From positions 5,108-69,107 of the forward strand of contig JAUSGZ010000017.1 in the NCBI GenBank assembly GCA_030648715.1: a stretch of DNA of 64,000 nt, given 5' to 3'. Below the pieces are notes generated by a model. The model did not search any database and was not told the origin of the DNA. It worked only from the letters and a program-made list of their open reading frames with translations. Origin of the DNA: a bacterium. GTDB lineage: Bacteria > Patescibacteriota > Patescibacteriia > Buchananbacterales > GWA2-38-13. The translations under genes and the position numbers were made by a program. Each line of letters begins with the position of its first letter. The first letter of the stretch is position 1. This document shows, in pieces, positions 1-64,000 of the stretch.

Positions 1-147
1 TGGGCGGTTCGATCGGTAGATCCATCGTCCACGACGATGATCTCGTGAACGACGGCGGCGCACTTCTCCTTGATATCGGCAATAACGCGCGCGATCGCCG
101 ACTCTTCATTCAAGGCCGGAATGATGATGGTGAGTGGCGGCATAATC
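1..147 (-). CDS. Glycosyltransferase family 2, N-terminal fragment (gene continues upstream of window start)
   Basis: rc of 1..147 translates MPPLTIIIPALNEESAIARVIADIKEKCAAVVHEIIVVDDGSTDRTA. This is the classic GT2 start (IIIPxxNE...VVDDGSxD). The ATG is at 145..147; the rest of the gene lies off-window. Confidence 0.6.
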
Positions 148-157
148 GTCCTGCGGT

Positions 158-17054: not shown

Positions 17055-17258
17055 TGTGTCACCCCCTTTCCTTATAGAATTGACAGCGGAAATATTGTTT
17101 CCGCGTGCCTCGTGGTAGACGCTGAGCGTTGTCCGTACCACATCGGCTACGCTCAGTATAGCCGATTTCCAGTCCTTAGGTAAACCGTAAAGTTATCAAC
17201 AGTCACCCGGTACTGCTTGACTCAGTATAGCAAAAAAATGAGATAACAGCAATGAAAA

Positions 17259-18464: not shown

Positions 18465-18577
18465 AACGTAAGCTCAAAACGTAAAATGCAAAACGAAAAT
18501 CTTAGGAATCGGTCCCGCCGACGGCGGGACTTTGATAGTTTGCGCTTTGCATTTTGCGCTTTGCATTTTGCATTTCT

Positions 18578-30800: not shown

Positions 30801-33800
30801 CCGGCGCCGCCGTCGGTGGAAACCGTATTGCCGGGAACATACGCCGGCCGCCAGGAGCAGAGGCCGGTGCGGCAATCCGGGTCGTTGGAACCGCTCACTC
30901 CCCTCTCCAGACAATCCGGGTCGCAGATACTGTCGCTTTGGCCGTTGCACGTGCCGTCCGGCCCGTCGTCACCGCTCCCGTTGGTGCCGCAGTTGGGGTC
31001 CAAGCCCGCCGGACAGTCGGGATCGCAGAACCCATCGCTGGCAACCGGCCAGCAGCCGTCGTCGCTGCCATTGCCGATGCCGCCGCAATCCGGGTCGACG
31101 ATGCTGGCAGCGAACGACCCATACGTGCAGTCCGCATCGCAATCGTCCGGCTCGTCATTGCTGGCATTGCAGCAGCCGTCGGTCGCATTGCTGCACACGC
31201 GCGGGCCGCAGTCGCGGTCGTAATTTCCGCTAAATGAGCAGTCGTAATCGCAGCCATCGCCCACCGGCGGCGGGTTGGGGCACGAAAAATTCTTGACCGC
31301 ATTCGCCGGCTTCCAGCAGTCCGGGTCAACCGCGCCCGGACAGTCGGCGTCGCAGACCGTATCGATGACGGGCAGGCAGCAATTACCGGCAGCGCTGGTA
31401 CAGACCGGACAATCCGGGTCCACAACCTTCCCCTCCGCATCCAAACCGCAATCCGGGTCGCAGACATCCGGGGTGTCATTCTGGGCCAGGCAGCACCAAT
31501 CATGGCCGTTCTGGCACGCCTGTTCGAACGCCCCGCGGTCGGCTGCCGCCGAGCCGATGGATGACTTTTGGATATTGCCGGTCGTCATCCCGCCCACCTG
31601 CACCTCCCAGAACCGGTTGGCCGGATCGGCTCCGTGGCGGAGGTCGTTGCGGCCGGTCAAGGCGCCGCCGCCCGTCCCGCCGCCGCCCAACGGATCGCTC
31701 GTGCAGTCAACGCACGACAGGTCGAAATTGGCCACGCTCTTCATGCTGATATTGTCGCCTTCCATGGTGCCGCTGCCCGGCGTAATGCGCGCATCAAGGA
31801 TGGTGACCTGGCTGCTGTCAGTAACCTCCACGCCATGGCCGAACGGGTTACGGATCTCCAAGCCATCGAACGTCGTGGTCGCATCGCTGAATCCGGTATT
31901 CCTCCCGACGATGCGGACGCACGGCCCGATGCAATTTTCGAGTTCAAGGTTCCGCGCATTCACCGGACCGGCGTAGTTGAATTCCAGCGGGTCGGCGCCC
32001 GACAATTTGCTCGCCACCCCCTTGAGGTTGGTGAACTGAAAAAAGGTGCTGTTGTTGGCGACTTGGAGGTGGTAGGTGCGCAACGGCGTACAGGTAGCGC
32101 CAATGCCGGCGCAGTCGGCGGCCGCGGTACACCGTTTTCCCCAGTCCAGCGTCGAACCCTGGCAGGTTTTCTCGAATTCCGGGTTGCTCAATGTCTGCAC
32201 CACGCCAGCGTCAACGTACTCACTCGTACCGTAGAAGTAGTAAAGCGGCGGGTGCAGGGCGCAGGTCACCGTCAGCTTCGGACGGTTCGCCGCCGTGCCA
32301 TTCTCCTCCTTATCGAAAGCGAACCCATCATCGTCGGCGGCGCCGTTATCGGGCGCGATCAGCAAACCTTCCGCGAGCCGCAGCCCCGACACCCACTCCT
32401 GCACCAGCTGACGGCCGTAGGCGTTGAGGGTATGGGTGTAGCTTCCCAATACCCCCGTACCGAAGCCCGTACCGCTGGCTAAATTGATGCCGTCCTGGTC
32501 CTGGAACGTGGATTTCGCCCCAGGAATGTTCCACGAGCCGGACGCAAACGGCCTATTCCAAGTCGCCTCGGCATCAATAAAGTAGTTCCGCAGCCCGTAG
32601 ATGGCAAACCGGTCCGCGGAGCTGTTCGTGACGTTGACCGTGAGCTTCACGTCCAGGACGGTGCAGCCGGGGGGCAGCACAAGATCCTGGGTTGAAAAGG
32701 GCACCCACCGGAGAAGTACGCGTGTCTCCTTGCCGGTGCCGTTGTTGTCGATATCACCGTCCACCGCCAAGGTCGCGTCGCCGTTCTTGGGCGTCGTCGG
32801 CTCCTTCTCATTAATGACGGTGTCGGACGTATCGTTGAACGTGGCCGTCGGACCCACGCCATCCTGCAGCTGGTAAGTGACGACGGTCGCGGACCCGCTG
32901 GGGCCGGCCGCATTCGTGCGCGCGACCGTGTGGCTGTAGTACTGGGTCGCGGAAAAATCCTCTGCGCCGTCGACGACGCGCGAGCCCGGGATACGCCCGA
33001 CCCAGAAGTAGGGCTGCTTGAGCGCGGTACCGGTGGAGGTCACGCGGTTGCCGAACCAGGTGATCTGCGTCGAATCGCCGATACGGATGCCCGGCGGGTC
33101 CTCCACATCCAGGCCGCCGAACCGGTCCGGGATCTGAACAACGTTGCCGCGAAAGATCATATTCCGAGCGTAGGAAAGCTGGATGCCCGGCCCATTGTTG
33201 TCTAAAAATTGATTGCCATCCACATCGGTGTAGCCGGACTGGAGGTACTCGTCCTCGGAAAACGCGGCCCCGCCTTGCGCGTTGCCGTTGAAGGAATTGA
33301 ACGCGATCTGCGTGCCGCTGCCGGCATCCTCCGCGCGCAGCCCCCACCCGGTATTGTTATTCACGGCGCTGTAGTTGAGGTACTGGTTGAATGGCCCGTC
33401 CAGCCATATCCCATCGCTCCCCTCGCGGAGCGTGGCGCCGGCGGCGTTCTTGCCATTCTCCACGCTGGCGAGCTTGTAGAACACATTGAGTCCGTATCCG
33501 CGGAGGTGCATGCCACCCGCAAAATTCCGGGTCGTGGTGTTGTTATACTCGTTCGGCTGGAGCCCGATCGGCCAGGTCCGAACATCATAGACGGAATACC
33601 CGTAGCACGGCGACGTGGGCGAGATATAGTTGCAGCTCGAGCCAAAACCCACATTCCACCCGAAAAAATTCCCCCAACCGGATTGCCCGCCCTCCGCGTA
33701 CACGCCGTACCGGCTGACGCTCCCCGAGAACGTATTGCGCCAAAAGAAGTTGTGGGTCGTGTCGGCATCGCGGCCGCTGTACGAACGCGTGAGCGCGACA

Positions 33801-36361: not shown

Positions 36362-36405
36362 CACTGGAGGGAAATGCAGAACAGCGTTATACTGAAACCG
36401 TCCGT

Positions 36406-36909
36406 ATGGGAAAAAATCGCGCTCCACTTGCCGGCCTCGTCATTGCCCTTGGGCTCGTCGTACTTGGGTTGTTCCTGGGCGCGCGCTGGCTGACCACATC
36501 GCGACGTGCACCCGTCGCACCGGTAACCGTCTGGGGCCGGTATCTTGAGCGTACCCCCGACTCGCTGACAGTGACCGTTGACCAGTTGCCGCCGGCGGCA
36601 ACCCAACAGGCAAATCTCCTGCCGATGGGCACGGAACGGCGTACAGTCTTTCCGCTCACGCCGCAAACGACCATGGTGGCGGAATATTTCATGGGCGACG
36701 GTGAACTGGCAACGCTCATCCTGTCGGAACCGCTGAATTTCAATAACCTCTTGCCGGGTACCGTACTCCAGATCGAAGCCGTTCCCCTCGGCCGGGGAAA
36801 ATGGCGCACGCTGGCAGTCCGGCGCCGCCAGTCCATTGCCCGCCCGGATCCTGCTGCGGAAGATACTGCTGCTACTACGAACATCCCGCCACCTATCAGC
36901 CCCCCATAA
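36406..36909 (+). CDS. Hypothetical membrane-anchored protein (divergent from giant-protein gene)
   Basis: N-terminal TM LAGLVIALGLVVLGLFLGARWL, 167 aa, no recognisable family. Confidence 0.4.
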   Translation: MGKNRAPLAGLVIALGLVVLGLFLGARWLTTSRRAPVAPVTVWGRYLERTPDSLTVTVDQLPPAATQQANLLPMGTERRTVFPLTPQTTMVAEYFMGDGELATLILSEPLNFNNLLPGTVLQIEAVPLGRGKWRTLAVRRRQSIARPDPAAEDTAATTNIPPPISPP

Positions 36910-36936: not shown

Positions 36937-36966
36937 TTGACAATGGAGGGCATTTTATTTTATAAT
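36937..36966 (+). promoter_or_regulatory. Consensus sigma70-type promoter upstream of lemA
   Basis: TTGACA (36937..36942), 18-nt spacer, TATAAT (36961..36966), about 65 nt upstream of the lemA ATG. Confidence 0.5.
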
Positions 36967-37589: not shown

Positions 37590-37599
37590 ACAATTTACA

Positions 37600-37671
37600 T
37601 TTGACCATTAACCTTTGACCGTTGACTTTTAACGCGGTCGTCACCCAAGGTCAAATGGTAAATGTCAAAGG
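37600..37671. promoter_or_regulatory. Composite heptad-repeat element upstream of htpX: 4 tandem TTTGACC-type heptads, 21-nt spacer, 3 tandem GGTCAAA-type heptads in inverted orientation
   Basis: TTTGACC ATTAACC TTTGACC GTTGACT (37600..37627), then GGTCAAA TGGTAAA TGTCAAA (37649..37669). The element ends ~20 nt before the htpX ATG. Confidence 0.5.
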
Positions 37672-37689
37672 TTAAGTGTCGCGCCACGC

Positions 37690-38577: not shown

Positions 38578-38583
38578 GACAAA

Positions 38584-38683
38584 CCATTGACATCTAACCA
38601 TTAACAATTGACTATCGCCCGAAGAACGTCAACGGTGAATGGTCAACAGTCAAACGTCAATGGTCAAGGGTCAACGGTGAACA
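38584..38683. promoter_or_regulatory. Composite heptad-repeat element upstream of clpC: 4 forward (n)ATTGAC-type heptads then 8 in-phase GTCAAnn heptads
   Basis: CATTGAC ATCTAAC CATTAAC AATTGAC (38584..38611), then GTCAACG GTGAATG GTCAACA GTCAAAC GTCAATG GTCAAGG GTCAACG GTGAACA (38628..38683). It ends 4 nt before the clpC ATG. Confidence 0.5.
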
Positions 38684-38687
38684 CCGT

Positions 38688-45912: not shown

Positions 45913-46076
45913 TCCGACATCGGCTGCTCTCATACGTCCGTCAGTATACCAGAAGCAATTAAAAAAACGGCTCGCTCATAGGCGAACCGCGCTCGACCGT
46001 TGTCTCCCCTTTGCGCCCGGCAGGGCTTTCACCCCACACCTTTTTGGTATGGATGAGAGGTATATCTTTTTACCTT

Positions 46077-46150
46077 TGCGCCCGGCAGGGCTCGAACCTG
46101 CGGCCTCAAGGTCCGCAACCTTGCGCTCTGTCCAGCTGAGCTACGGGCGC
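46077..46150 (-). tRNA. tRNA-Arg (anticodon GCG as folded by eye)
   Basis: GCGCCCGTAGCTCAGCTGGACAGAGCGCAAGGTTGCGGACCTTGAGGCCGCAGGTTCGAGCCCTGCCGGGCGCA. The cloverleaf is perfect, with 7-bp acceptor, Arg-type D loop (AGCTGGAYAGAGC) and T-loop TTCGAGC. No CCA is encoded. Confidence 0.7.
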
Positions 46151-46973: not shown

Positions 46974-47936
46974 TCATCTACTTATTAGAAATTCTAACAA
47001 GCCTTCATGTAAATGTTTCTGACCGCCCCAAACCACAGTATTGTAACCCTCCAAAAATTCTGCAGGATTTTCTTCTCGAAAAGTAATAGAACGAACTTTT
47101 TCGGGCAGCGCTTCGCTCATGTGCCTATCAGTCCCGCCTCTTATAACTGAAAATTTATCTCCCCAAACTTCTATATTATCTGGCTTTAGCCTTTCTTTTG
47201 CTAAACCAACGGCTCTCAAAACTTCTTCGTTACCTAAAATATATTTAATAGCTGTAGTTTTTGATACCCCTTTAATAGCCAAATCGATAGCAAATACTCC
47301 TGCTAACCTCGGAGAAATTGGTAAATTATTTTCTTGCAATAGCTGATCAATTCGCTCAACAATGGGAACTCTCAAATCCAAATTGCCGTGAGTATTCGGA
47401 ACGCTGATTTCCAATGCCTTTTCTTGCTCTGGCGTTAAATCGTAACCATTTATCACCTCTAAAGTTATTTGTGGGCCCCTGTCTTCCAGCATGATCGCTA
47501 ACGGATTATTCCCAACCTTAGATTTAAACTCTGTTAGCGGCGTTGCTGGGTAAACCTGTAACTTAAATTCCTTTATTATTTGATTTACTATATCTCGCCA
47601 TCTCTTTTTTTGATTCTCAGTTAAAGCGTTTTCATACAGGCTGTAAAAAGGCTTGGCGTTTACATAACCCGATTCATCAAACCCCCAAACTTCAGCTCCA
47701 CTGCAATGACCAACTAATACTTTCTTTCTTAACTTTGATTTAACATGGTCAGTAATGCGCCATTGAACACTTTTAATGCTCTGTCCCGTAATAAAAAATA
47801 CTACAGTCCCTTGTTCCAAAATCTTTTCCAACTCTCTACATATTTCAGGAGTGGCGGCAGTATATAGATCTGCAACTGTTTCATCGACATCAGATAAAAT
47901 CAACCTTAAACTGTTATTCCATTTGATAGTTGCCAT
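46974..47936 (-). CDS. HAD-superfamily hydrolase-like protein (DxDET motif), encoded by an atypically low-GC gene
   Basis: LILSDVDETVADL matches the motif-I DxDxT of HAD phosphatases (class-B acid-phosphatase-like DIDET). The gene GC is visibly far below the ~64% flanks and there is an AT-rich intergenic region at 46810..46975. Confidence 0.45.
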   Translation of the reverse strand: MATIKWNNSLRLILSDVDETVADLYTAATPEICRELEKILEQGTVVFFITGQSIKSVQWRITDHVKSKLRKKVLVGHCSGAEVWGFDESGYVNAKPFYSLYENALTENQKKRWRDIVNQIIKEFKLQVYPATPLTEFKSKVGNNPLAIMLEDRGPQITLEVINGYDLTPEQEKALEISVPNTHGNLDLRVPIVERIDQLLQENNLPISPRLAGVFAIDLAIKGVSKTTAIKYILGNEEVLRAVGLAKERLKPDNIEVWGDKFSVIRGGTDRHMSEALPEKVRSITFREENPAEFLEGYNTVVWGGQKHLHEGLLEFLISR

Positions 47937-48088
47937 GTGTTGGTTCAAAGTTGGACATCTGGCCGTGGCGGTGGGGGTGAGATTCTCTGCCTTCGGGAAA
48001 CCACCCGTAGGGTGGGTACCCACAGTACCCTTGCTGGTTCAGCAGTTTTTCCGCCTGCGGCGGATCCGCCGTAATATTTATTTTAGAA

Positions 48089-48175
48089 CGGAGGGGGCGA
48101 GATTCGAACTCGCGAGACCATTCCTGGTCTACTGGTTTTCAAGACCAGCCCTTTCAACCGCTCAGGCACCCCTCC
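48089..48175 (-). tRNA. tRNA-Ser (anticodon TGA), class II with long variable arm
   Basis: GGAGGGGTGCCTGAGCGGTTGAAAGGGCTGGTCTTGAAAACCAGTAGACCAGGAATGGTCTCGCGAGTTCGAATCTCGCCCCCTCCG. Anticodon loop CTTGAAA, variable-arm stem AGACC/GGTCT, T-loop TTCGAAT. Confidence 0.85.
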
Positions 48176-48679: not shown

Positions 48680-48766
48680 AAATTAAAATCGGAGAGGGTG
48701 GGATTCGAACCCACGAGGGACTTTCATCCCCAACGCCTTAGCACGGCGCCGCTTTCGACCGCTCAG
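48680..48766 (-). tRNA. tRNA-Ser (anticodon GCT), class II
   Basis: GGAGAGGTGGCTGAGCGGTCGAAAGCGGCGCCGTGCTAAGGCGTTGGGGATGAAAGTCCCTCGTGGGTTCGAATCCCACCCTCTCCG. Anticodon stem GCGCC/GGCGT, loop GTGCTAA, long variable arm, T-loop TTCGAAT. Confidence 0.8.
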
Positions 48767-48867
48767 CCACCTCTCCACAGGCGTACTCCGTCAAGGCACG
48801 ACATCGGTCAATAATTTTTTTTAACCGACCGTGTCATCATACCAGAAATGTCGCCTCCTGTCCAGCC

Positions 48868-52168: not shown

Positions 52169-52272
52169 TGATGTTTGGGGCTAGTACCCGGTGCTCTGTA
52201 CCCAGTGCTCCGTGCGTATCGTCACCGTCGTAACTATACTGAGCACGGTGTACTGAGTACTGAGCACATGCG

Positions 52273-53008: not shown

Positions 53009-53446
53009 TCAATCCTGGGCGGTTTCGCCCTCGTAGACGCCACCGGTATCCACGATCAAGGATAGCTCCACGAGCCGCGAGCTCCCCACCAGGGGCTTGT
53101 GGCGGGGCGGAACGATGGGTTTGGTCGTGATCTCCTTCATGGCCAGCTGGAGCTCGGCCGGCGTCAGCCGCTTGTCCCAGAGCGTGAGGCGCGGCCGCTT
53201 CATGGTTTGGATAAAATTGAGGATGAAATAATGGACCGGACGGCCGTTGATCTTGATGAACGCGAACACGATCGTCAACACCGCGATCACCAGCAGCCAG
53301 AACAGGAACAGGGTGAAGTCGGAGATCTTGTACGCCAGGAACACCATCCCGCCGGACACCAGTAAAATAATGAACTGGCGCACCGTGATGGGGCCGATCA
53401 CCTTGTCTTCCACATCGAGGAATTGCGGAACCACGAACTGCTGCAT
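53009..53446 (-). CDS. Small 2-TM membrane protein, PrgI/VirB3-like first gene of the T4SS-like sub-operon
   Basis: 145 aa with two hydrophobic helices (FIILLVSGGMVFLAYKI; LFLFWLLVIAVLTIVFAFI). It is positioned directly before the VirB4 genes. Confidence 0.5.
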   Translation of the reverse strand: MQQFVVPQFLDVEDKVIGPITVRQFIILLVSGGMVFLAYKISDFTLFLFWLLVIAVLTIVFAFIKINGRPVHYFILNFIQTMKRPRLTLWDKRLTPAELQLAMKEITTKPIVPPRHKPLVGSSRLVELSLIVDTGGVYEGETAQD

Positions 53447-53461
53447 AATGGAACATTTAAC

Positions 53462-53547
53462 ATTTGACCCTTAACCATTGACCGTGATTCGATTGTTCAG
53501 GTCAAATGTCAATTGTCAAAGGTTAATTGTTAACGATTAAAACCTCA
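53462..53547. promoter_or_regulatory. Third copy of the composite heptad element (4 forward nTTnACC heptads + 6 GGTCAAA-type heptads) between the Pro-rich gene and the PrgI-like gene
   Basis: TTTAACA TTTGACC CTTAACC ATTGACC (53462..53489), then GGTCAAA TGTCAAT TGTCAAA GGTTAAT TGTTAAC GATTAAA (53506..53547). Confidence 0.5.
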
Positions 53548-54721
53548 ACGTCCGATTAAAATCAGCAATCGCCTCGAACTCGGCCACGCTCAGGATCGAC
53601 GTTCCGGGGGTTGCATTTGAGCCCAGCATTTCACTGATCGGCCGCTTCTCCGCCATCGCGCGACCAGCGGTCGCCGTGTAAAGGTTGAATACTTCGCAGG
53701 ACCGCCAGGCGGCGATGGCGGCCGCTTTGTGAGCAAAGGATTGCTGTTCAAGCAGGACGATCTTTTCGCGTAAACGATCCGTCGCGCGGCGCGGGTCGGC
53801 ATCCAAACGGCGAAAGTCTTGCAGAGTCATCTGGCCGATCTCTTCCAGGGGGCCAACCAGCTGCGGCCGGTACCGTACTGCCGGCACTTCCTCTGCCATG
53901 GGCTCTGGGGACGGCGTGAACGGTTCCGTTGCTCGAGCTACGGGCGGCAGCATTGCTGGCGGCGCGAGAGGTGGAACAGCGGGCACTGGTTGCGGGAACC
54001 TCGTCGGCACCGGTAATGATGGCGGCTCCAGCGGTACCGCCGACGGGACCGGCGAAACAGCGGCGGAGGGGCGGCTCATCAACGGAGGACGCGTCGGGGG
54101 ACGGACTGGCGGGAGTGGCGGCACCGTCGGAGGAAGAGCGGCGGGCGGTAACGGCTGCAGGGACATGCGCCGCGGCGGCGCGATCGGCGCGGCAGGTACG
54201 GGTGCGGAAGGCGTTAGCGGCGCAACCTCGCTGACGTTGGCCTGCAGCTGGGCGACGGCTTGGTCCTGCTGCCGGCGGCTGGCTTCGCTGAAACGGCGGT
54301 AGTGTCTTTCGATGACCACGGACGACGTTTCGGCCTGCTCGGCCGTGAACCCGAGCCCGCCGACCTTCAGTGGCCGCGCCATTGCCTCGCGGGTTTCAAT
54401 GGCATCCCGCACATCCTTGAACCGCGCCAAGATATGGGTACGCAGACGTTTTTGGAGTACCGGGTCGGGCAACGGCAACGCCAACTCCTTGATGACTTGT
54501 TCAACGAACGATTCCACGGGGGACGATTGGGAGGGAAGCGCCGCAGGCACGGACGCAGGAAGTAACGGCACGGCCGTCGGTACGGCGCTACGCCACGGCT
54601 CCACGATACCGCCGCGCAACACCTTCAGCTGCCCATCGGCGTCCTTAAAGAGTACCTCCTCGCTGCCGGTAAACGGATTGTACACAGCCTCTGGCATGGG
54701 TAACAGGTTCACGGCAACCAC
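53537..54721 (-). CDS. Hypothetical proline-rich protein
   Basis: 394 aa with a central ~130-aa segment of PxxP/PPLPP repeats and a folded C-terminal region. Translationally coupled (13-nt overlap) to the upstream gene. Confidence 0.5.
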   Translation of the reverse strand: MVAVNLLPMPEAVYNPFTGSEEVLFKDADGQLKVLRGGIVEPWRSAVPTAVPLLPASVPAALPSQSSPVESFVEQVIKELALPLPDPVLQKRLRTHILARFKDVRDAIETREAMARPLKVGGLGFTAEQAETSSVVIERHYRRFSEASRRQQDQAVAQLQANVSEVAPLTPSAPVPAAPIAPPRRMSLQPLPPAALPPTVPPLPPVRPPTRPPLMSRPSAAVSPVPSAVPLEPPSLPVPTRFPQPVPAVPPLAPPAMLPPVARATEPFTPSPEPMAEEVPAVRYRPQLVGPLEEIGQMTLQDFRRLDADPRRATDRLREKIVLLEQQSFAHKAAAIAAWRSCEVFNLYTATAGRAMAEKRPISEMLGSNATPGTSILSVAEFEAIADFNRTLRF

Positions 54722-56006: not shown

Positions 56007-59000
56007 TTAAATGGTTGGTCGGCCTTTCGGCGGTTCGCCGGATAAGGATTCTGGAGAAATTGCAGGGATTTCTGGTACGCCGGTTGACCCTTCCTTGCTC
56101 TGCGCCATCTCCTGCAAAGACTTATTGATCTGGAAAAGAAGGTCTGCAAGCTCGTCGGCTTGTTCCCTTGTCACCCCAGCCCCGGCTTCGGCAGATACCT
56201 GCGCCTCGCCGATACGCGCCACACCATCACGCAAATTCTTGCCCAAAACATCAAATTTCTTGCTTGCGTCTTTATCGGTCATGCCAGCCTTTTCCTCCTG
56301 TTCGGATAACGTTGTCGCAAGCGACTGTACGCTGCCAGAAACCTGCGCCAGCGCTTCGCTCATGGTCTTGAGCATCTTGTTCAGGGTGGCGAGGTCGGCA
56401 GTCGGAAACGCTTTTACCACCTCCGCCTGCCGCTCAACTTGTTCTGCGGCGTGCGCTGCTATCTTTTGGGACGTCACGGTCGCAGCCGGAGGCGTCGGTG
56501 AATCCGCTGGTTGTACGGGCGCGGGGGAAGACGGATGTGCAGCTACTGGGGATGGCTCTTGGACGGGTTGGGACGCTCGAGGCGATGTGGACTTACGAGC
56601 CGCACGCCTTGCCTCCACTTCCTTGGCCAAGTTATCGGTATGTGATGTACCCCCGCGATCAATACCGCGGCCAACCGCCGAAAGCTGGTTACCGAAAAGA
56701 TTTCGGGCAACCGCGGCTGCCTTCTGGACATCCTCAGGGGTCGCGCCGTGCATCACCACGTTATCAAATCTATATTTCGCCCGTTGCCCGGTTGGAGCAA
56801 CTTTCACTTGGCCGTTATAGCCTGCCTTCGCCAAAGCCGCCATAAATTGATTCAAGCGTTCCGGCGTAAGATCCCGCAGCGTGTCTTTGAACGTCAAATA
56901 ACCTTTGTGGGTTTCTCCCGTTGATTCTTTGCCTTTGCCAACCTGGTAATTCAGCCAATCCGACTCTGCTCCGATAGCGCGGACATTCTCAACTTGGGTC
57001 TTCCCACTCCCTACTTCATTCCAATTGTTAGTTTGTTTTTTACCGAACTCCTTCAATGATTCAAGCAACCCGGGAGTTGAAGCCATCTCTTTGGCGATAT
57101 CAGACTCTTGCAAGTGGCGCAGTTCCGCCTTTCGCGTCAATAGATTGTAGACATCCGCGCCAGTTACCTCTAAACGATTTTGGGTCAGATACTCCGCAAA
57201 TTCATCCTGGGACATGGCGGCAATCTCATGTTGAGATGGCGAATGCAGCGCAGACGGCGCGGAACCTAGTCCTGCAGTTCCTGTGGGGGGTTGCGCCGGC
57301 CCGGCAGCTGTTTTGGCAGAAATCTTTGGCGGCGGAACAGCCCGTACCGAGGGCGGCTCAATGCCCTCAGCCGCGGCTTCGGCCGCACGACCAACATTTT
57401 CTTCCGCCGCAGTGGCGGTGGCCTCCACCTGTTCAACCAACCCGACCAGACCCGCGGAGAAATCCTGAATTTCTCCCATTCTTTGTTCGATCTGCCCCAT
57501 CTCTTCGGTTCGTTGAGCGATCGCCTGCTGCGCCTTGCGCAGGGCGGCAACATTACCCGTTGACCGGGCCTTCTGGGCAGCCGCCCCCTGCTGCTGCAGC
57601 GCAGCCCCTGCCGCAATACGACGCTTGTCCAACTTCTCGTACTCTTTGCTCATGGCTGGGATTTCCTGCTCCCCGATCGTTTTCGCTTCTTGCAAACGAC
57701 GCTGAGCGATCACCAACTCTTCTTGCGCGAGCACGAGATCGCTCACATCGGCAGCGTTCTTCAGCACCAAATCATCCCACTCGCCGATCTCCTTATCGAC
57801 ACCCTTGATCTGGCCACCCACCGTATTGAAACGGTCTTGGGCGGCCTTCACCGCATCATCAGCGCGCTTGCGTTCCGTACCCGGCGCGGCCTGGGCCTGC
57901 CGCTCTTGCTGCTTCCGCAGGTCTTTCTCCGCGGCTTGATGCTGCTTGACCAACCCTGTCCGCTTCTCGGCGAGCTCGGCATAGTTGAAATCACGCTTCA
58001 CTTTTGCGACATTGAGCTCCTGGTCCGCATCTTTCAAGCCGCTACCCTTGACTTTGGGGGCTAGACCGAGACGGCGACGCTTCACGGTGTAATCCAGCTG
58101 GTCGCGAATGATCTGCGCTCGCTGCGCGCGGTCGTGCGCCGCCCGAGCGCCCGCCGCATCCCCTTGGGTCGCCTTTTCTTCCGCCTCCTTGTTATTCGCT
58201 TCCAATTCGGACTGGGCATGGCTAAGTTGCTGGGCCAGTTCATCCTTACTCAATGTGCCAGCCGCGTCCCGAACAGCGGCAGCGAACGTTTCCAGAGACT
58301 GCACGGATTCCTCAACCCGGCGCCGGTAATCGGCTTGCGCGCCTTCCAGCGCCTGGGAGTCCCTGGCGACGACGTCCTGCTGTTCAGTAACGGCATCGGT
58401 GGCGGCGGTAACCTCCTGCTGCTTGGCACGGGCCAACGTTTGGGCCTCCTCCTGGGCCTGGTAGTTCCCCTCTTCGACTGCCCGGCGGGCCTGCGCGTTC
58501 AATTCCGCGAGCTCAAGCTGCCGCTGGTCGCGCACCTTGACGCGATTTCCCAATTCCTGCTGGCTAGCCCGCACGATCTGTTCCTTGGCGCCGATCTCCT
58601 GCTTGGCACCCGCCACCTCCTCACGGTTTCCCTGGCGCGCCGTCAAAAACTTCTCTTCCACGGCAGTCAGCGACTGCTGGCCCTTGCTGACCGGTACGGG
58701 CTTAGGTTGCAACGCCTGCACCGCGCGCTCCTTGGCCTGTACCTCCTGCTGCTGTTTTGCGATGCGCTGTTGCGCGGTACGCAGATCCCGTTCCGCGGCC
58801 TGGGCCAGGCGTTCCTGCCTCCCGGCTTCTTCCTGGCTGCCTTGGTCTGCGGCCCGCTTCCTCAAGCGGTTATGCACCTGGGCGCGACGGGCAAGCTCAT
58901 CGCGATTCTGTTCCAATTCCGTCAATTTGCCGCGGCTTTCCGACAGCTCCTGCTGCGCGCGCGCCGCTACATTCTCGGGCTTTGCCGCCTCGCGGCGCTG

Positions 59001-62000
59001 CTGGGTTTGACTGACGCGCTCCTGCAACGTCGTCATGAGCTCGGGGAACGACTGGTCCGCCTGCCGCGCGTTGTCCAGCGCCGCCTCCTTGCCCGCCACG
59101 TCGCGACGCTTGGCGCCAATGGTCTGATCAAGCTGCGCCAGCTGCTGAGCGGACTGGTCGGCTTGCTGGCGAGCTGCGGCGATCTCCTGGGGCGTCAGGC
59201 CAACACCTGCCTGCCGCACCGCCGCCTGGTTGATCTGCACGGCTTCGCCCAACGCCTGCTGGTCAGAACGATGCTGCATTAGCGTACGCTTGGACTCCTG
59301 CAGGCGAAGGTACTCGGCGTCGTACGCCTGACGTTTGACCCCGACGTCCTGGCGCGCCGTCTCGTCGCGTTGAACGGCTGCCGCAACACGCGTCTCCTGC
59401 GCGGCCTTGGCCGAGCTCTGCGTCTCGATCTGCTGGTTCAGCTGCGCCAATGGTGCGGCGATCTTTCCCTCTGCAGCAGCTGCCAACGCCTGCTCACGGG
59501 TCGCTTCCTCAAGCGCCTGCTGTTCGGCCAAAGCGTTGCCACTCGCCCTCGCGGCGTTCAAACGCTGGCTGGCGGCGTTCTGGTTGGTGAGATGTTGGTC
59601 GCGTTCGCGAGTCAAGACATCGCGATTTCCCATCAACGCCGTCAACTGGGTTTGTATCGCCTGCAAAGCCGATCTCTCTTGCCCCGCTGCCGCCGCCGCT
59701 TCGGGCAGCTCCACCTTAGCGTTCTGCAGCTCGATGCGGGCATGCTCGACATTTTCCTCCTGGGTCTGCACCACCTGCTCCTGTTCGTTGACGCGTTGAT
59801 CGGCCGCACCCAACTGCCCCGCGCTGCGGTTATACGCTTCCTGCGCCGCGCTCACGTCACGCGCCTCGGCATACCGGGCAGCCTGCTGGCGCACCAACGT
59901 CAAGGACTTCAGCTTGCTGCGGTCGCCTTCTAACGCTGCCAACTCACCGCGCTCTCCCTCCAACGCCGATCTCGACTCCTCGGTTGCCGCCCCCCACTGG
60001 GGACTGACCTCGGCCAGGACTTTTTCTGCGATCCCGTCCAGCTCCGCGTCCGACAGTTGGTCAAGGGATCTTTGCAATGTCGCTGCGAACGCTTGGCTGC
60101 TGGGCCCCGCGCTCGCGGCTGCCTGCTGGCGCAGGGCTTCGGCCTGCGTCAGGGCCTGCTGGCGCTGGTCTACCACGCCCCGCTGGGTCGCGACCTGCGT
60201 ATTGAGGACATTCAACTGCGGCTGCACCTTCGCCTGGGAATCGCGCGCCAAATCGCGCTCCGTCATGGCTTCGCGGTCATTCGCAGCAAAACCCAATTTG
60301 TCGCCGCGCGCTTTTGCCTGCTCCGCCCGCTGGCGTGCCGCCTGGCCCTTGGCGATATGCGCATCCGTTTCCCGCAACAATTCCCCGCGCTGGCCTTCCA
60401 GCTGGGTAAGCTTTTGCTGTTCCGCGGTAAGGGAGGCGTTCGCTTGCTGTACCTGCGCTTCGGCCCGGGTAACCTCCTGGGCGCGCGAACCTTGCTGGCC
60501 CGCTGCGTCCGTCAAAATTTTCCCGATCTGCACATCAGGCTTTTGCTGCCGCTGACGGTGAATTTCTTCGATCTCTTCGTTGGTGATGGCGCGCTCTGCC
60601 TTCTCCTGCGGGGCAAGCGGTTCGTCCGGCTTGAGTTTGCGGCCGCGGTAGCGCGCACCCTTGGCAACCTTTCCGGTCTTGTCCGTCACTTCCAGCTCAT
60701 CAAGGAAATTCCGCGTCTGTTCGGACAACGTGTGGGCGTTATCGTTCACGCCCAACGCGTGCGCCAGATATTCTTCCGGCGTTTCCTGGTCGAACAATTG
60801 CTGCTGCTCCTCGGACAACGTGCCCCGGAACGTCTGACGCTGCTCGTCGTTCAGCTGATTAGCAAGAGTATGGCCGTACTCGTGGCGACGGGCGGTGAAA
60901 CGACTGCCGAACGCGGCGTTGTTATGCAAGGACAGTGTGGAAGCGGAATCCAGCCGCTTTTTGAATTCGGCCTGGCGCTGCTGGGCACTGACCTCTCCAG
61001 CCGCCAGCGAGGAAACATCCTTGTCCTGGGACATCTGCCGCAGCGCCTCACCCTGCTGGGCGCCCAGCACCGCCGCATCCCTATAGTGGTAGCCCGCCAC
61101 CGCGCCCGAAGCATCGCGAACCTCCTCAACGCGCCCAGCGGCGTTGCCCTCCTTGAACTCAGCCGCCGCCCATTGCCCGACCACGCGGTCGGCATATTGT
61201 TTGTCCGCGTCCGCCGGTTTCAATGTTTGGTATTTCGCGGCGTAACCGTCGCGCAATTCCTCATCCGTGACGGCGTCGGGCTGCTTGCCCAACCCTTGGG
61301 CAACCTCCTGTCGGAACGCGGCTCCTTTGCCGACCAACTCTTTCCCGTAATCCTCCGCCAAATTCTTGGCGACGATATCTTTGTTCGCCTTACGCTCTGC
61401 GGTTGACTCATCGTAGTTGACGGCAGTCATTCCCGGAACGACGCCATACCGCTGACCGGCTTCGGCGGACTCGAAGTTCACACCGATACCGGCCACCGCC
61501 TTTCGTCCATATTCCGCCAATGGGCCTTCGGCGTAGCCCTCGGCTGGCCGCCGCTCGATGGAGGCAACACCCCGCATCGCATCCAGGCTCTCGCTCCGTT
61601 TTTCCTCCACCTGCTCATGGCGGATAATTGCCGACGTAGCATACAACGTCCCGGCGCGTATTTCTTCCTGGTGCAGGCGCCCATACGCTTCATTGGCCTC
61701 GGACTCCGACATTCCGGCAGCCAGCAGCTGCTGGTACGCTTCCTGCGAAGCGGCCTGGACCTCGGGGCTGTAGGTCTCCATCAACGGGCGTCCGCCCTTC
61801 GGGGCGTACCCACCATGCAGCCGCCATTCTTCGGGAATCTCCTCATGTTGCGACGCCGCTGGTCTTCCATTGATATCCAAAGCCCCGGGTGTCCCATGCT
61901 GTAAATACGTCTCCCATTCTGGGCCGGTTCGGCTATTGACGTAGGTTTCCAACTCGGGCGAAAGCGGCCCCGCACGAGCGGCGGCATAACTTGTAGGCTC

Positions 62001-64000
62001 GTAGGTCTTTCCTGATTTTGTAAACGCTTCCTCTGCATACTTATCTAATTCAATCCCAGGGGTGCCATCGTAGTTCCGAACCCCGGCTTTATTCATAATT
62101 CTTTCAACCGCTACGGCTTGTTCCGGAGAAATATTCTTTTGTCCAAAAAGGTTGGCTACCCCATGGTGGCCCTTCGCCTTGAATTGGTCGTAGACCGACC
62201 TAATATCCAGCGCCATGGAACCGGTTTTTTGGTCAAAACGGAAGCCGGCGAACTCCGCGGCGCGCGGCTGCAGGCCGTGTCCTCGTTGCGCCACCACGCG
62301 ACCGAAGAATACGGTATCGAATTTCGCCGACGCGATCTTACCCAAACGGTCCATCCGGCCCATGCGAGAATGGACGACCTTTCCGCCCGACAGCACGTCC
62401 TCGAACGGCTGCGCGGTGGGATGGAATTTGAAAAAGGCCTTGCCTTCGGTCTTGGCAACAAAATTTTCCATTTTTCCGCGGCCGATGATCGTACCGAACT
62501 CTTCGCCGAACTTCTCCTCGAGTTTCCGCAAGACATTCGCTTGGATCCGTGGATTATTGTCGATGGTCGGATGCTTTTTGTACTCCACTTCAAGTTCTTC
62601 CCGGGCGCTGTCTTCGGACACCAGCACGTTCTCCACGTCGCCGGTGGGGCGTCCTTTGCTGTCAAGTACGGGGCGCGTGAACCCGTAGCCAAATCCGCGC
62701 AGGAGCGCGCTCTCCTCTGATTGGTCCTTCAGCAACACGCCCAGGTCGCCCGCAGACCGTTTGCCGAAAGTGCCGCCGATGCGCTTCATCAAATGTTCGC
62801 GGAAACTGGTTTGTGAGTGTTCTTGGTCTCCGTACTCATCGGGGTACCGCTGCGCCATGTAGCCCATGTAGTCGTCGGTGTGGTTGCCCTTGTTCAGCGC
62901 CAGGGCGGCCGCGAACGAGCGCACCTGGTTTTTGTTCTTGATGGCAAGGTCAAATTCGCTGGCTTTTTCCGTTTCCGTCAGGTTATTCAGTTCGGACATT
63001 TCCTTGCTGACGAGCGAACGGAATGCCTTGTCACCTTCCTTGGTTTTTTCACCTTCCAGCCGAGGAATAGCTCCGACGGTTACGCCCGCGATCTTGACCC
63101 GCTGCCAACGCAGGCGTGGTTTGGTCACGCTGTTGAGAAAGTCGGCCATGTCGCCAACGGATTTACCGAACGACTGCTGCTCCGCCATCTGTCGCGAACG
63201 CGCCGTGCCTTGCCGGCGAACGGTCGGGCTTAATAATCCCGCAATCGTTGAATACCACCGCTTGTCTTGCACGCGCCGACCGAGCCATCGGTCGGTCAAG
63301 CGGCCCGCGCCGTAGGTGCCTTCCCGCGCCAGCCAACCGGCGCCGCGCAACGGCGAGGTACCCGCACGGATGCCGGCGCGGGCCATGCGCTGGCCGTACG
63401 ACCGCAAACTGCCCATGACCGAGCCGGCGAACTGCGAACCGGCAACGCCGGCCTTCTGGGCGGCCACCAGCCCGCCCAGCATCAGGCAGGTCATCACCAA
63501 AAACTTCAACACGTTCTCTTTCTCTCCGGCCTTGCCGATACCCACCCGCAATGACGGTTCCAATTGGGCGACGCCCCCTTCGCTCAAGGCGGTGGTTGGC
63601 GCACGCGTGGTATCCAGCGTGGTCGTGAAGGCCTGTTCCGAGGTCGCGATCGCCAGCCAGAAGAAGAACATCAGGATGGGCCCGACGGTCACGTACTTGG
63701 AGAAGGTCTGCCACCACTCGCGGCTGTAGCGCTCCCCCTGCGGGAAGGCCGACAGCACGTAGGCGAGCGGCGAAAGGATGATCAGTATCCACAGCGCAAC
63801 GATACGCAACGCAAACACCACGAGGTACGCCAGGATGACGGAAAACGCGATGATGAGCATGACGGTTGCGAGCAGCAGCGACAGGAAGAGGTAGAACAAG
63901 GCGATATTCTCCTCGCCGGACCCCGGCAGGAACGCGTCCTGGCTGACCGCGAACAACTCGGCGAGCCCGAACTTGGCGTAGATGTTGCCGGCGGTCACCT
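56007..64000 (-). CDS. Giant (>2663 aa, 5' end outside window) TrbL/VirB6-like polytopic membrane protein with >1000-aa Q/A/E/R-rich coiled coil and C-terminal globular/Pro-rich regions
   Basis: The visible N-terminal part has 5-6 TM helices with a TrbL-like pattern (LRIVALWILIILSPLAYVLSAFPQGERYSREWWQTFSKYVTVGPILMFFFWLAI). Heptad-pattern coiled coil is encoded across ~57.6-60.8 kb. The C-terminus is Pro/Ser-rich. The ORF is open to the window edge. Confidence 0.6.
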   Translation of the reverse strand, partial: VTAGNIYAKFGLAELFAVSQDAFLPGSGEENIALFYLFLSLLLATVMLIIAFSVILAYLVVFALRIVALWILIILSPLAYVLSAFPQGERYSREWWQTFSKYVTVGPILMFFFWLAIATSEQAFTTTLDTTRAPTTALSEGGVAQLEPSLRVGIGKAGEKENVLKFLVMTCLMLGGLVAAQKAGVAGSQFAGSVMGSLRSYGQRMARAGIRAGTSPLRGAGWLAREGTYGAGRLTDRWLGRRVQDKRWYSTIAGLLSPTVRRQGTARSRQMAEQQSFGKSVGDMADFLNSVTKPRLRWQRVKIAGVTVGAIPRLEGEKTKEGDKAFRSLVSKEMSELNNLTETEKASEFDLAIKNKNQVRSFAAALALNKGNHTDDYMGYMAQRYPDEYGDQEHSQTSFREHLMKRIGGTFGKRSAGDLGVLLKDQSEESALLRGFGYGFTRPVLDSKGRPTGDVENVLVSEDSAREELEVEYKKHPTIDNNPRIQANVLRKLEEKFGEEFGTIIGRGKMENFVAKTEGKAFFKFHPTAQPFEDVLSGGKVVHSRMGRMDRLGKIASAKFDTVFFGRVVAQRGHGLQPRAAEFAGFRFDQKTGSMALDIRSVYDQFKAKGHHGVANLFGQKNISPEQAVAVERIMNKAGVRNYDGTPGIELDKYAEEAFTKSGKTYEPTSYAAARAGPLSPELETYVNSRTGPEWETYLQHGTPGALDINGRPAASQHEEIPEEWRLHGGYAPKGGRPLMETYSPEVQAASQEAYQQLLAAGMSESEANEAYGRLHQEEIRAGTLYATSAIIRHEQVEEKRSESLDAMRGVASIERRPAEGYAEGPLAEYGRKAVAGIGVNFESAEAGQRYGVVPGMTAVNYDESTAERKANKDIVAKNLAEDYGKELVGKGAAFRQEVAQGLGKQPDAVTDEELRDGYAAKYQTLKPADADKQYADRVVGQWAAAEFKEGNAAGRVEEVRDASGAVAGYHYRDAAVLGAQQGEALRQMSQDKDVSSLAAGEVSAQQRQAEFKKRLDSASTLSLHNNAAFGSRFTARRHEYGHTLANQLNDEQRQTFRGTLSEEQQQLFDQETPEEYLAHALGVNDNAHTLSEQTRNFLDELEVTDKTGKVAKGARYRGRKLKPDEPLAPQEKAERAITNEEIEEIHRQRQQKPDVQIGKILTDAAGQQGSRAQEVTRAEAQVQQANASLTAEQQKLTQLEGQRGELLRETDAHIAKGQAARQRAEQAKARGDKLGFAANDREAMTERDLARDSQAKVQPQLNVLNTQVATQRGVVDQRQQALTQAEALRQQAAASAGPSSQAFAATLQRSLDQLSDAELDGIAEKVLAEVSPQWGAATEESRSALEGERGELAALEGDRSKLKSLTLVRQQAARYAEARDVSAAQEAYNRSAGQLGAADQRVNEQEQVVQTQEENVEHARIELQNAKVELPEAAAAAGQERSALQAIQTQLTALMGNRDVLTRERDQHLTNQNAASQRLNAARASGNALAEQQALEEATREQALAAAAEGKIAAPLAQLNQQIETQSSAKAAQETRVAAAVQRDETARQDVGVKRQAYDAEYLRLQESKRTLMQHRSDQQALGEAVQINQAAVRQAGVGLTPQEIAAARQQADQSAQQLAQLDQTIGAKRRDVAGKEAALDNARQADQSFPELMTTLQERVSQTQQRREAAKPENVAARAQQELSESRGKLTELEQNRDELARRAQVHNRLRKRAADQGSQEEAGRQERLAQAAERDLRTAQQRIAKQQQEVQAKERAVQALQPKPVPVSKGQQSLTAVEEKFLTARQGNREEVAGAKQEIGAKEQIVRASQQELGNRVKVRDQRQLELAELNAQARRAVEEGNYQAQEEAQTLARAKQQEVTAATDAVTEQQDVVARDSQALEGAQADYRRRVEESVQSLETFAAAVRDAAGTLSKDELAQQLSHAQSELEANNKEAEEKATQGDAAGARAAHDRAQRAQIIRDQLDYTVKRRRLGLAPKVKGSGLKDADQELNVAKVKRDFNYAELAEKRTGLVKQHQAAEKDLRKQQERQAQAAPGTERKRADDAVKAAQDRFNTVGGQIKGVDKEIGEWDDLVLKNAADVSDLVLAQEELVIAQRRLQEAKTIGEQEIPAMSKEYEKLDKRRIAAGAALQQQGAAAQKARSTGNVAALRKAQQAIAQRTEEMGQIEQRMGEIQDFSAGLVGLVEQVEATATAAEENVGRAAEAAAEGIEPPSVRAVPPPKISAKTAAGPAQPPTGTAGLGSAPSALHSPSQHEIAAMSQDEFAEYLTQNRLEVTGADVYNLLTRKAELRHLQESDIAKEMASTPGLLESLKEFGKKQTNNWNEVGSGKTQVENVRAIGAESDWLNYQVGKGKESTGETHKGYLTFKDTLRDLTPERLNQFMAALAKAGYNGQVKVAPTGQRAKYRFDNVVMHGATPEDVQKAAAVARNLFGNQLSAVGRGIDRGGTSHTDNLAKEVEARRAARKSTSPRASQPVQEPSPVAAHPSSPAPVQPADSPTPPAATVTSQKIAAHAAEQVERQAEVVKAFPTADLATLNKMLKTMSEALAQVSGSVQSLATTLSEQEEKAGMTDKDASKKFDVLGKNLRDGVARIGEAQVSAEAGAGVTREQADELADLLFQINKSLQEMAQSKEGSTGVPEIPAISPESLSGEPPKGRPTI

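Follow-up and report, generated by a model that had tools for sequence, protein, structure and literature searches.

The gap upstream of the PrgI-like gene

The subject of this study is element C, a period-7 repeat that fills the gap upstream of a PrgI-like gene in contig JAUSGZ010000017.1; it was analysed within a 64-kb stretch of that contig, the whole of which we refer to as the window. The gap belongs to a type IV secretion system (T4SS)-like operon with genes for PrgI, a TraC-like open reading frame (ORF), VirB4 and ComFC, and it extends over 90 nt (53447-53536, gene strand -) from the TAA stop codon (53537-53539) of a 394-aa ORF to the ATG (53444-53446) of the PrgI-like gene. A first-pass annotation of this DNA had described the length of the gap, the Pro-rich nature of the upstream protein and the PrgI-like downstream gene correctly (Table 1), and the heptads and 16-nt spacer that it quoted are all present (53456-53541). 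On the plus strand, four heptads (TTTAACA TTTGACC CTTAACC ATTGACC, 53456-53483) are followed by the spacer (GTGATTCGATTGTTCA, 53484-53499) and then by six more heptads (GGTCAAA TGTCAAT TGTCAAA GGTTAAT TGTTAAC GATTAAA, 53500-53541); the span of 53462-53547 that was first assigned to it is about 6 nt off. Read in the sense of the genes, the stop codon is followed by six nTTRACn heptads, the 16-nt spacer and four nGTYAAn heptads, and a stretch of 9 nt (TGTTCCATT, 53447-53455) then leads to the ATG; heptad 1 of the upstream arm overlaps the TAA of the Pro-rich ORF. In a repeat search the two arms matched in three registers, each displaced by 7 nt, with complementarities of 78%, 81% and 74%, and a blastn comparison of element C with plasmids gave no match.

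A homology search returned 1075 PrgI homologs from Patescibacteria, and PrgI and HtpX homologs alike carry Patescibacteria annotations, among them Candidatus Buchananbacteria, Falkowbacteria and Uhrbacteria. The 394-aa Pro-rich ORF has no Pfam match, and we could not substantiate the TrbL component that had been proposed for this operon, as Pfam detected no TrbL domain in the 2663-aa, 430-aa or 394-aa ORFs. Nor is the PrgI-upstream gap the only sizeable one in the operon, as had been thought, because the 104 nt between the TraC-like ORF and the VirB4 ATPase ORF also carry an inverted heptad array.

Heptad arrays in the window

The period-7 core of element C, TTRAC/GTYAA, is common to the PrgI-upstream, LemA-htpX and htpX-clpC gaps, and we refer to the arrays in the latter two as copies A and B. 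The triple-heptad pattern TTRACNNTTRACNNTTRAC (at most one mismatch) has 20 matches in the window against 0.02 expected, all of them confined to three loci (37594-37675, 38587-38681 and 53457-53540), which bears out the description of element C as a third copy; the 17 two-heptad matches (0.27 expected) fall in the same three loci only. There are 6+4 heptads in the arms of C, 6+4 in A and 4+8 in B, the spacing from core to core is 7 and occasionally 14, and the inverted arm ends 12 nt before the htpX ATG in copy A and 4 nt before the clpC ATG in copy B. Across the 32 in-register heptads TT.AC is nearly invariant, with at most one exception per position and all four letters kept in 28 of the 32. 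The non-consensus counts at the seven positions (19, 1, 0, 14, 1, 1 and 15; chi-square p=2e-10) place the variation almost wholly at the central R and the two linker positions. Locus L001 (L numbers denote the loci compared) has the same sequence as the window; among HtpX homologs the closest has 80% identity and other words beside it, and no close relative with arrays A and B was among the loci compared.

Is this architecture a property of the TTRAC word? Autocorrelation of the whole window at lag 7 picked out five loci, each a full stop-to-start gap between co-directional genes and each within an evident operon (type IV pilus, LemA-htpX-clpC or T4SS-like), and three array words are found in the window, arranged as inverted pairs. 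Besides TTRAC these are TGCTCAG/TACTCAG in the gap between the TraC-like and VirB4 ORFs, with its complement on the other arm in the form of GAGCACn/GGGTACn, and the ATGCAAA-type word between pilT and pilC, where the arms enclose a GC-rich hairpin (GTCCCGCC..GGCGGGAC). The latter design of word and hairpin recurs before clpC in L209 (9967-10100). The array architecture is not bound to any one word.

VirB4 itself appears to be split into two ORFs, a TraC-like one of 256 aa and the VirB4 ATPase, with the repeat element of the 104-nt gap between them, and the two-ORF layout is retained in the relatives L122, L125 and L212.

A clade-wide class of 7-8-nt arrays

The relatives that we compared were 80 metagenome loci related by HtpX together with several contigs related by PrgI or HtpX. 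In 487 kb of their sequence, periodic segments numbered 76 at lag 7 and 39 at lag 8, against 7-12 each at lags 5, 10, 11 and 13; those at lags 6, 9, 12 and 15 reflect coding repeats. The array words vary widely (AATTTCC, ACAACCC, TAGAGCC, CTACGCA, GCATCTC and ACATTCCA are examples), and at least five words occur within 4 kb in more distant AT-rich relatives. When window and relatives are taken together, 91 of 121 arrays are intergenic, compared with only about 9% of the DNA. A census of gaps of at least 40 nt in the window and 84 relative Patescibacteria loci found arrays in 49/178 co-directional gaps, in 8/27 convergent gaps (some of which contain tRNAs or are mis-called) and in none of the 37 divergent gaps, the gene calls in the relatives being those of a crude greedy longest-ORF procedure that leaves some error in the gap classes. 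Divergent gaps thus differ from the remaining gaps, of which 57/205 (about 28%) carry arrays, at p=2.9e-5 by Fisher's exact test.

Many of the array gaps consist solely of a stop codon, an array, a short spacer, the inverted array and a start codon. The predicted stems cover about 80% of the gap, beginning at a median of 6 nt past the stop and ending at a median of 9 nt before the start, and the array ends 4-14 nt from the start codon without a Shine-Dalgarno (SD) sequence. These genomes are otherwise compact, with many overlapping genes.

In 524 kb from Patescibacteria of lineages other than that of the window, a run of three TTRAC heptads is found just once (L169), and the one Patescibacteria run of four such heptads among the matches listed (L029) lies inside an ORF in a different layout. 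Runs of four TTRAC heptads are, among the matches listed in our contig scan (L002-L121), common in filamentous cyanobacteria (Microcoleus, Aerosakkonema, Nostocales) and Bacteroidota, and some of the arrays listed there exceed 20 heptad copies (L054, L037). A second, non-tandem repeat family is represented in L212 by the perfect palindrome GCTACCATGCTACGTAGCATGGTAGC, which is found in two different gaps (5539-5725 and 7271-7408).

Word turnover at orthologous sites

The site upstream of PrgI could be followed through seven lineages. The TTRAC array of the window (PrgI identity 100%) is retained with three substitutions in L206 and L207, where PrgI is 96% and 94% identical, respectively. At 89% identity (L208) the word is ATTTGnn/TGGAATT, at 81% (L122) there is a 30-nt gap without an array, at 79% (L212) GTGAGTA/TACTCAC arms surround a gene, at 73% (L124) four copies of CTTGAAn are followed by 13 nt and four copies of TTCAAnn, and at 69% (L125) the word is TAGAACC/TAAAACC. 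The first-pass annotation had proposed to check the co-occurrence of the element with T4SS loci in related genomes; at the PrgI site of these relatives the TTRAC word is limited to L206 and L207, with other words or none elsewhere. L206 differs from the window at two positions of heptad 5; with the partner heptad, what had been a G-U pair is now A-U and what had been an A-G mismatch is now C-G, and the two changes also recreate a 14-mer that is duplicated relative to the window.

A similar turnover is seen at the LemA-htpX-clpC-PD40-radA locus, which is syntenic in L209 and L210 and where the words are unrelated to TTRAC. L209 (HtpX identity 80%) has AATTCCA/AAATCC before htpX and ATGCAAA with a GC hairpin before clpC, and L210 (72%) has CGCAAAA, AATTCC, ATTTTCA and AATTCC in four consecutive gaps. 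A protein divergence of about 10% already suffices for a change of word at orthologous sites, whereas the sigma-70 promoter before LemA remains conserved. L210 and L122 belong to one metagenome-assembled genome, GCA_028712155.1, in which CGCAAAA, AATTCC and ATTTTCA/CAATTTC are each present at both the htpX/clpC and the T4SS loci, and the TGCAAA-plus-hairpin type is found at different sites in several genomes (between pilT and pilC in the window, between htpX and clpC in L209). Each genome has a small set of word families that persist across related genomes and are re-assorted among gaps.

These observations bear directly on one of the interpretations first given to element C, namely that the T4SS-like operon shares a regulator with the stress genes htpX and clpC. 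The repeat core is indeed common to these loci, and far beyond chance, but the shared regulator is not supported. Arrays of this architecture but with other words are found both in the window and across the clade. In the orthologous gaps before PrgI, htpX and clpC the word has changed even where the proteins are 72-89% identical, in contrast to the conserved LemA promoter, and in GCA_028712155.1 it is other words that the stress and T4SS loci have in common. As a genome has about three words, the sharing of a word between T4SS and htpX/clpC genes is roughly a one-in-three event that chance alone would provide, and we take the three TTRAC copies in the 64 kb of the window to be paralogous repeats rather than the signature of a regulon.

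The final ~18 codons of htpX (LTHPP.EERV..LRGM) occur on both sides of an ATTTTTG heptad array in L193 (4838-4995) and in L194, the latter with a third copy. This duplication of the htpX 3' end suggests that arrays arise or insert together with duplicated flanking sequence.

TIGR02436 genes between array arms

Small genes of the TIGR02436/PF05635 family (23S rRNA intervening sequence protein, or IVP; a four-helix bundle) sit exactly between the inverted arms of 7-8-nt arrays in relatives (Table 1). All TIGR02436 genes that we detected in about 590 kb of Patescibacteria sequence, five genes representing three or four independent insertions, are flanked by inverted arrays of one word. Where the gene in L212 occupies the site of element C, the GTGAGTA/TACTCAC word of its arms also forms gene-less pairs with similar GC-rich spacers in the next two gaps. 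We found no TIGR02436 homolog in the window, and a search for such genes beside TTRAC heptads at 120 non-Patescibacteria loci yielded two, neither of them adjacent to those heptads; one of the two, in Chitinophagales locus L077, has arrays of another word on its flanks. In a CRISPR-discovery paper, '23S rRNA IVP' appears among array-associated proteins without further analysis (PMC10910872).

Folding, promoter and RNA-family searches

Element C is predicted to fold more stably than shuffled sequences (z=-5.3 for the gap alone and z=-3.3 for 131 nt with flanks), and the mean z of the array gaps is -3.7, with -6.3 for the gap between the TraC-like and VirB4 ORFs. The predicted stem of C is the same from 25 to 55 C and has -16 kcal/mol at 55 C. 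The complementarity of the arms is 0.57-0.65 in the best register and up to 0.64 in other in-phase registers, and this near equality indicates that the pairing is word-based and able to slide. It also makes a unique conserved hairpin, or a recent mirror duplication, unlikely.

A promoter scan of element C found TTGACA-N16-AACAAT, a weak site that agrees at 10/12 positions, in which AACAAT is the sole sigma-70-like -10 match in the spacer and stands 16 nt from a TTGACA heptad; this one match compares with 0.4 expected by shuffling, and the scan detected no promoter-like site in the other four array gaps. Genuine promoters of this organism are of the form TGnTATAMT or TTGACA-N17-TATAAT and are conserved, and -10 boxes of the TGnTATAMT type are missing from the arrays. 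No intrinsic terminators (GC-rich stem plus U tract) were found within the five array gaps, the few that were reported sitting in flanking coding sequence. Rfam gave no match at the gathering threshold and only chance-level ones at E<=1 (speF, E=0.95; a plant miRNA model, 25 bits where the cutoff is 84), and the window contains no rRNA.

Other features of the window

The coordinates of the features discussed here are collected in Table 1. The genes of the window further include glycosyltransferases, a type IV pilus operon, LemA, HtpX, ClpC, a PD40 protein and RadA, and RecG. The promoter upstream of LemA probably drives LemA-htpX-clpC, and we used it as a control for the conservation of a cis element in these genomes. 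SD sequences are rare in the start-codon contexts of the window, and extended -10 boxes (TGnTATAMT) often lie 7-15 nt from an ATG or GTG (e.g., 45934-45960 and 17142-17170), which suggests that first cistrons are leaderless or nearly so.

Table 1. Positions of element C, of related arrays and of the genes and promoter discussed in the text; window coordinates unless a relative's locus is named.
Feature	Sequence	Coordinates	Strand	Remarks
Element C, upstream arm	Window	53500..53541	-	Six heptads: TTTAATC GTTAACA ATTAACC TTTGACA ATTGACA TTTGACC
Element C, spacer	Window	53484..53499	-	16 nt, gene sense TGAACAATCGAATCAC
Element C, downstream arm	Window	53456..53483	-	Four heptads: GGTCAAT GGTTAAG GGTCAAA TGTTAAA
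PrgI/TcpE-like gene, 145 aa	Window	53009..53446	-	PF12666 PrgI, E=6.6e-9; directly downstream of element C
Pro-rich ORF, 394 aa	Window	53537..54721	-	61/394 residues Pro; stop codon inside first heptad
TTRAC copy A, LemA to htpX gap	Window	37590..37689	+	Six heptads 37592-37633, 16-nt spacer, four inverted heptads 37650-37677
TTRAC copy B, htpX to clpC gap	Window	38578..38687	+	Four heptads 38585-38612, 15-nt spacer, eight inverted heptads 38628-38683
Array-filled gap, TraC-like ORF to VirB4 ATPase ORF	Window	52169..52272	-	104 nt; word TGCTCAG/TACTCAG
Array-filled gap, pilT to pilC	Window	18465..18577	-	ATGCAAA/GCGCAAA x5, GC-rich hairpin spacer, TTTTGCA-type heptads to GTG start
Sigma-70 promoter TTGACA-N17-TATAAT upstream of LemA	Window	36937..36966	+	Kept in window, L209 and L210
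IVP gene	L122	2375-2843		CAATTTC arm, gene, GAAATTG arm
IVP1 gene	L212	105-578		AATTCCA arm, gene, TGGAATT arm; orthologous site to L122, related word
IVP2 gene	L212	1752-2218		GTGAGTA arm, gene, TACTCAC arm; directly upstream of PrgI, the element C site
IVP gene	L193 (L194 identical)	3529-3994		AATGTT and AACATT arms around the gene (period 8), just upstream of htpX
TIGR02436 gene	L077 (Chitinophagales)	38-750		Flanked by CCTTAAA-type heptads

Three further observations concern the gene content. An ORF of 349 aa (46974-48023) has no Pfam match and lies in a stretch of 40% GC, its GC content at third codon positions being 0.34 compared with about 0.75 elsewhere. One tRNA gene is immediately upstream of it (48089-48175) and two others are further out on either side (46077-46150 and 48690-48776); the region is probably a horizontally acquired island. 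There are also two giant ORFs, one of 2862 aa (27839-36427) with beta-helix/NosD repeats, orthologs of which flank the LemA locus in L209 and L210, and the other the 2663-aa ORF mentioned above (56007-63998), which is without a Pfam match.

Interpretation of element C

What kind of element is C? Our preferred explanation, to which we assign a probability of roughly 0.4, is that it is a copy, without an ORF, of the lineage-specific TTRAC family, itself part of a clade-wide set of intercistronic repeats resembling intervening sequences (IVS) and repetitive extragenic palindromes (REP), and that if it acts at all it does so as an RNA stem between cistrons. We place the arrays in a repeat class of the IVS or REP/bacterial interspersed mosaic element (BIME) type because they are excluded from gaps that hold only promoters, because they are operon-internal and run from stop to start, because their words turn over while the LemA promoter is conserved, because the word families are re-assorted and because IVP genes are nested between the arms. 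As for how such an element might work, element C would be transcribed inside the operon, several alternative registers would allow its TTRAC and GTYAA arrays to form an interrupted stem of about 30 bp, and at the base of this stem the stop codon of the upstream gene would come to lie next to the start codon of PrgI. In cis, such a stem may serve the processing or stability of the transcript between the cistrons, or it may couple their translation. A stop-to-start RNA device is plausible in an organism that is poor in SD sequences and prone to leaderless transcripts.

A number of our own results sit uneasily with this explanation. The arrays fold equally well on both strands, the antisense strand being the more stable in 18/26 array gaps, and an A+C orientation bias, sought in the array gaps as a sign of selection at the RNA level, was absent. 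Arms are unequal (6:4 and 4:8), direct-only arrays that are incapable of pairing occur in the relatives L193, L149 and L125, and a plain hairpin function leaves the 7/8-nt periodicity and the near-invariant TT.AC unexplained. The missing strand asymmetry, the strict periodicity, the near-invariant core and the direct-only arrays all suggest that there is more to these elements than pairing. Additionally, we found no signature of mobility, either as target duplication or as a transposase, and the crude gene calls in the relatives leave some error in the census of gap classes.

The main rival explanation, which we consider rather unlikely, is that the arrays are operator or roadblock sites for a cooperative, word-specific DNA-binding protein, with a dimer on each heptad of both arms and htpX, clpC and prgI under common control; the candidates would be ribbon-helix-helix proteins like omega, MetJ or ParG and four-helix-bundle proteins of the TIGR02436 family. 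In anatomy the arrays correspond to omega heptad sites (PMC9499535), with cores of ~5 bp that recur every 7 or 8 bp between variable linkers. Binding of this kind would also suit the nearly invariant TT.AC in the 32 heptads, the presence of both orientations with a complementarity that is word-based and not register-specific, the symmetric folding of both strands, the confinement of one core to exactly three loci of the window and the small repertoire of words per genome, which a few paralogous binders could serve. MetJ and ParG boxes fit the same core-plus-linker anatomy. Yet the arrays are missing from all 37 divergent promoter gaps, they come without a consistent promoter, their words are not conserved at orthologous sites as the LemA promoter is, and at least five words are packed into 4 kb in the more distant AT-rich relatives. 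Nor was a candidate binder identified in the window, where a search for TIGR02436 homologs gave none and Pfam was run on the larger ORFs only.

Could the arrays have no function? Replication slippage might expand words in AT-rich gaps and quasi-palindrome template switching might mirror them, the products being tolerated as harmless. Rapid turnover and the multitude of words, imperfect copies, unequal arms and 14-nt super-units, the 14-mer duplicated in L206, the array between duplicated htpX 3' ends in L193/L194 and the lack of strand asymmetry are all what such a by-product would lead one to expect. It is nonetheless a doubtful explanation, because variation within heptads is strongly non-uniform (p=2e-10), the orthologous gap carries arrays in 6/7 lineages (although its array-free state is a 30-nt gap), identical words recur across genomes at different sites, and divergent gaps are spared in genomes that are otherwise compact and rich in overlapping genes.

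Two explanations in terms of familiar signals fare worse. The first-pass annotation had suggested an internal promoter or attenuator, of which an attenuator-like, operon-internal RNA stem is possible, whereas a promoter is not supported. TTGAC(A/C) does match the -35 consensus, the 10/12 site in element C improves to AATAAT at its -10 in L206/L207, and -10 boxes close to an ATG are frequent in this organism, so a sigma-70 promoter could give PrgI-VirB4 its own, possibly near-leaderless, transcript. Against this, the single weak match is near the shuffle expectation and has no counterpart in A, B or the two other arrays, it does not resemble the conserved promoters of the organism, arrays avoid promoter-only gaps (0/37 divergent gaps) and the words of relatives (TTGAA, TAGAACC, TACTCAC) are not -35-like; we regard it as very improbable. 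Still less credible, and disfavoured by us, is a heat-shock or stress element common to htpX, clpC and T4SS genes, whether a CtsR-type operator or an RNA thermometer. GGTCAAA, which matches the CtsR core, and GTCAA do stand upstream of clpC and htpX, and the clpC...radA gene order recalls the ctsR-clpC operon of Firmicutes. However, the period is 7 and not the 10 (7+3) of a CtsR box, clpC is not preceded by ctsR, and in relatives whose HtpX is 72-80% identical the words before htpX and clpC are unrelated. The predicted stem does not change between 25 and 55 C, there is no SD to mask in an organism poor in SD sequences overall, and Rfam offers no match. We therefore ruled out a CtsR box on spacing, gene context and absent conservation, and an RNA thermometer on the stability of the stem to 55 C and the absence of an SD.

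A further possibility, bolder and in our opinion improbable, concerns the repeat class as a whole and would make the arrays and the TIGR02436/PF05635 proteins one system. Each word family would have one master copy, with the four-helix-bundle gene between its arms, while element C and other copies that have no gene would depend on it as satellites. The protein might recognise the 7-8-nt word in DNA or RNA, and its role might be to carry the element to further stop-to-start gaps or, alternatively, to govern processing and translation at each copy. Such a system would be analogous to RAYT/REPIN or to ORF-bearing and ORF-less IVS. If true, it would provide tiny genomes with a modular, fast-rewiring means of handling operon-internal expression and would assign a function to the very widespread TIGR02436/PF05635 family.

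The wider question is how Patescibacteria, with genomes of about 1 Mb and few recognisable regulators, tune expression inside long operons. Inverted tandem arrays that run from stop to start throughout a clade would be a new kind of genomic repeat and may add a new layer of operon-internal control. Three little-understood subjects meet in this class, namely heptamer repeats beside start codons, intervening sequences like those of rRNA, and what PF05635 proteins do, and it counsels caution in inferring regulons from shared repeats in Patescibacteria genomes.

Comparison with known systems

Element C falls fully within none of the families compared here, and the literature that we searched (on repeats in Patescibacteria or beside start codons, and on the IVP family and repeats) holds no description of such arrays in Patescibacteria. 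TIGR-Tas-type arrays were set aside, as the heptads here are without interspersed spacers. The sites of omega (ParB of pSM19035) are contiguous 7-bp repeats with a conserved core, direct and inverted, of which at least four copies are needed for function (PMC9499535, PMC2441792). The arrays described here are alike in having at least four contiguous 7-bp repeats, a conserved core and both orientations. Omega sites, however, are uninterrupted and overlap promoters, whereas our arrays form two arms around a spacer of 15-37 nt inside operons with no evident promoter and use many words per clade, and Pfam scans of the larger ORFs of the window identified no omega-like protein.

The CtsR operator of Firmicutes, RGTCAAA-NAN-RGTCAAA, has the same heptad letters and also lies upstream of clpC. 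It consists of two direct heptads that are 3 nt apart (period 10), whereas here 10-12 copies form two opposed arrays of period 7. The genes upstream of clpC are here those for LemA and the M48 protein HtpX, not ctsR, and the conserved promoter is upstream of LemA while the clpC-upstream word differs in relatives. A resemblance in position relative to gene starts is offered by the TAACTGA heptamer direct repeats of Beggiatoaceae, Cyanobacteria and Bacteroidetes, for which a translational role has been proposed (MacGregor, 2015, PMC4679880). These, like the cyanobacterial short tandemly repeated repetitive (STRR) heptamers, are tandem heptamers that end a few nt before starts without an SD. The TAACTGA repeats are a single word genome-wide in forward orientation, unlike the several families described here, which have periods of both 7 and 8 and usually form inverted pairs from stop to start.

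The parallels with REP and IVS elements are the ones on which our preferred explanation draws, and we emphasise that those with RAYT and IVS are structural analogies. REP/BIME elements are extragenic imperfect palindromes that occupy co-directional or convergent gaps and are absent from divergent promoter regions; within one genome they group into families, and RAYT transposase genes are flanked by the REPs that they mobilise. The arrays share the distribution among gap types and the grouping into families, and they too can flank a gene with inverted copies, here TIGR02436, which is not known to be a transposase. Each REP is one palindrome of ~20-40 nt, its consensus is fixed and its copies run to hundreds, whereas the elements here are tandem arrays of 7-8-nt words. 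The IVS of 23S rRNA are stems excised by RNase III with an optional S23p/IVP (PF05635) ORF, the ORF-less versions being about 100 nt long, and in the early mRNAs of phage T7 the RNase III sites are intercistronic stems. Our arrays differ from IVS in lying in mRNA operon gaps between protein genes rather than in rRNA helices, and in forming tandem-word stems with regular internal loops. They nevertheless resemble IVS in that an inverted-repeat stem encloses an optional PF05635/TIGR02436 ORF (in L122, twice in L212 and in L193/L194), with element C corresponding to the ORF-less form at the very site where L212 carries IVP2.

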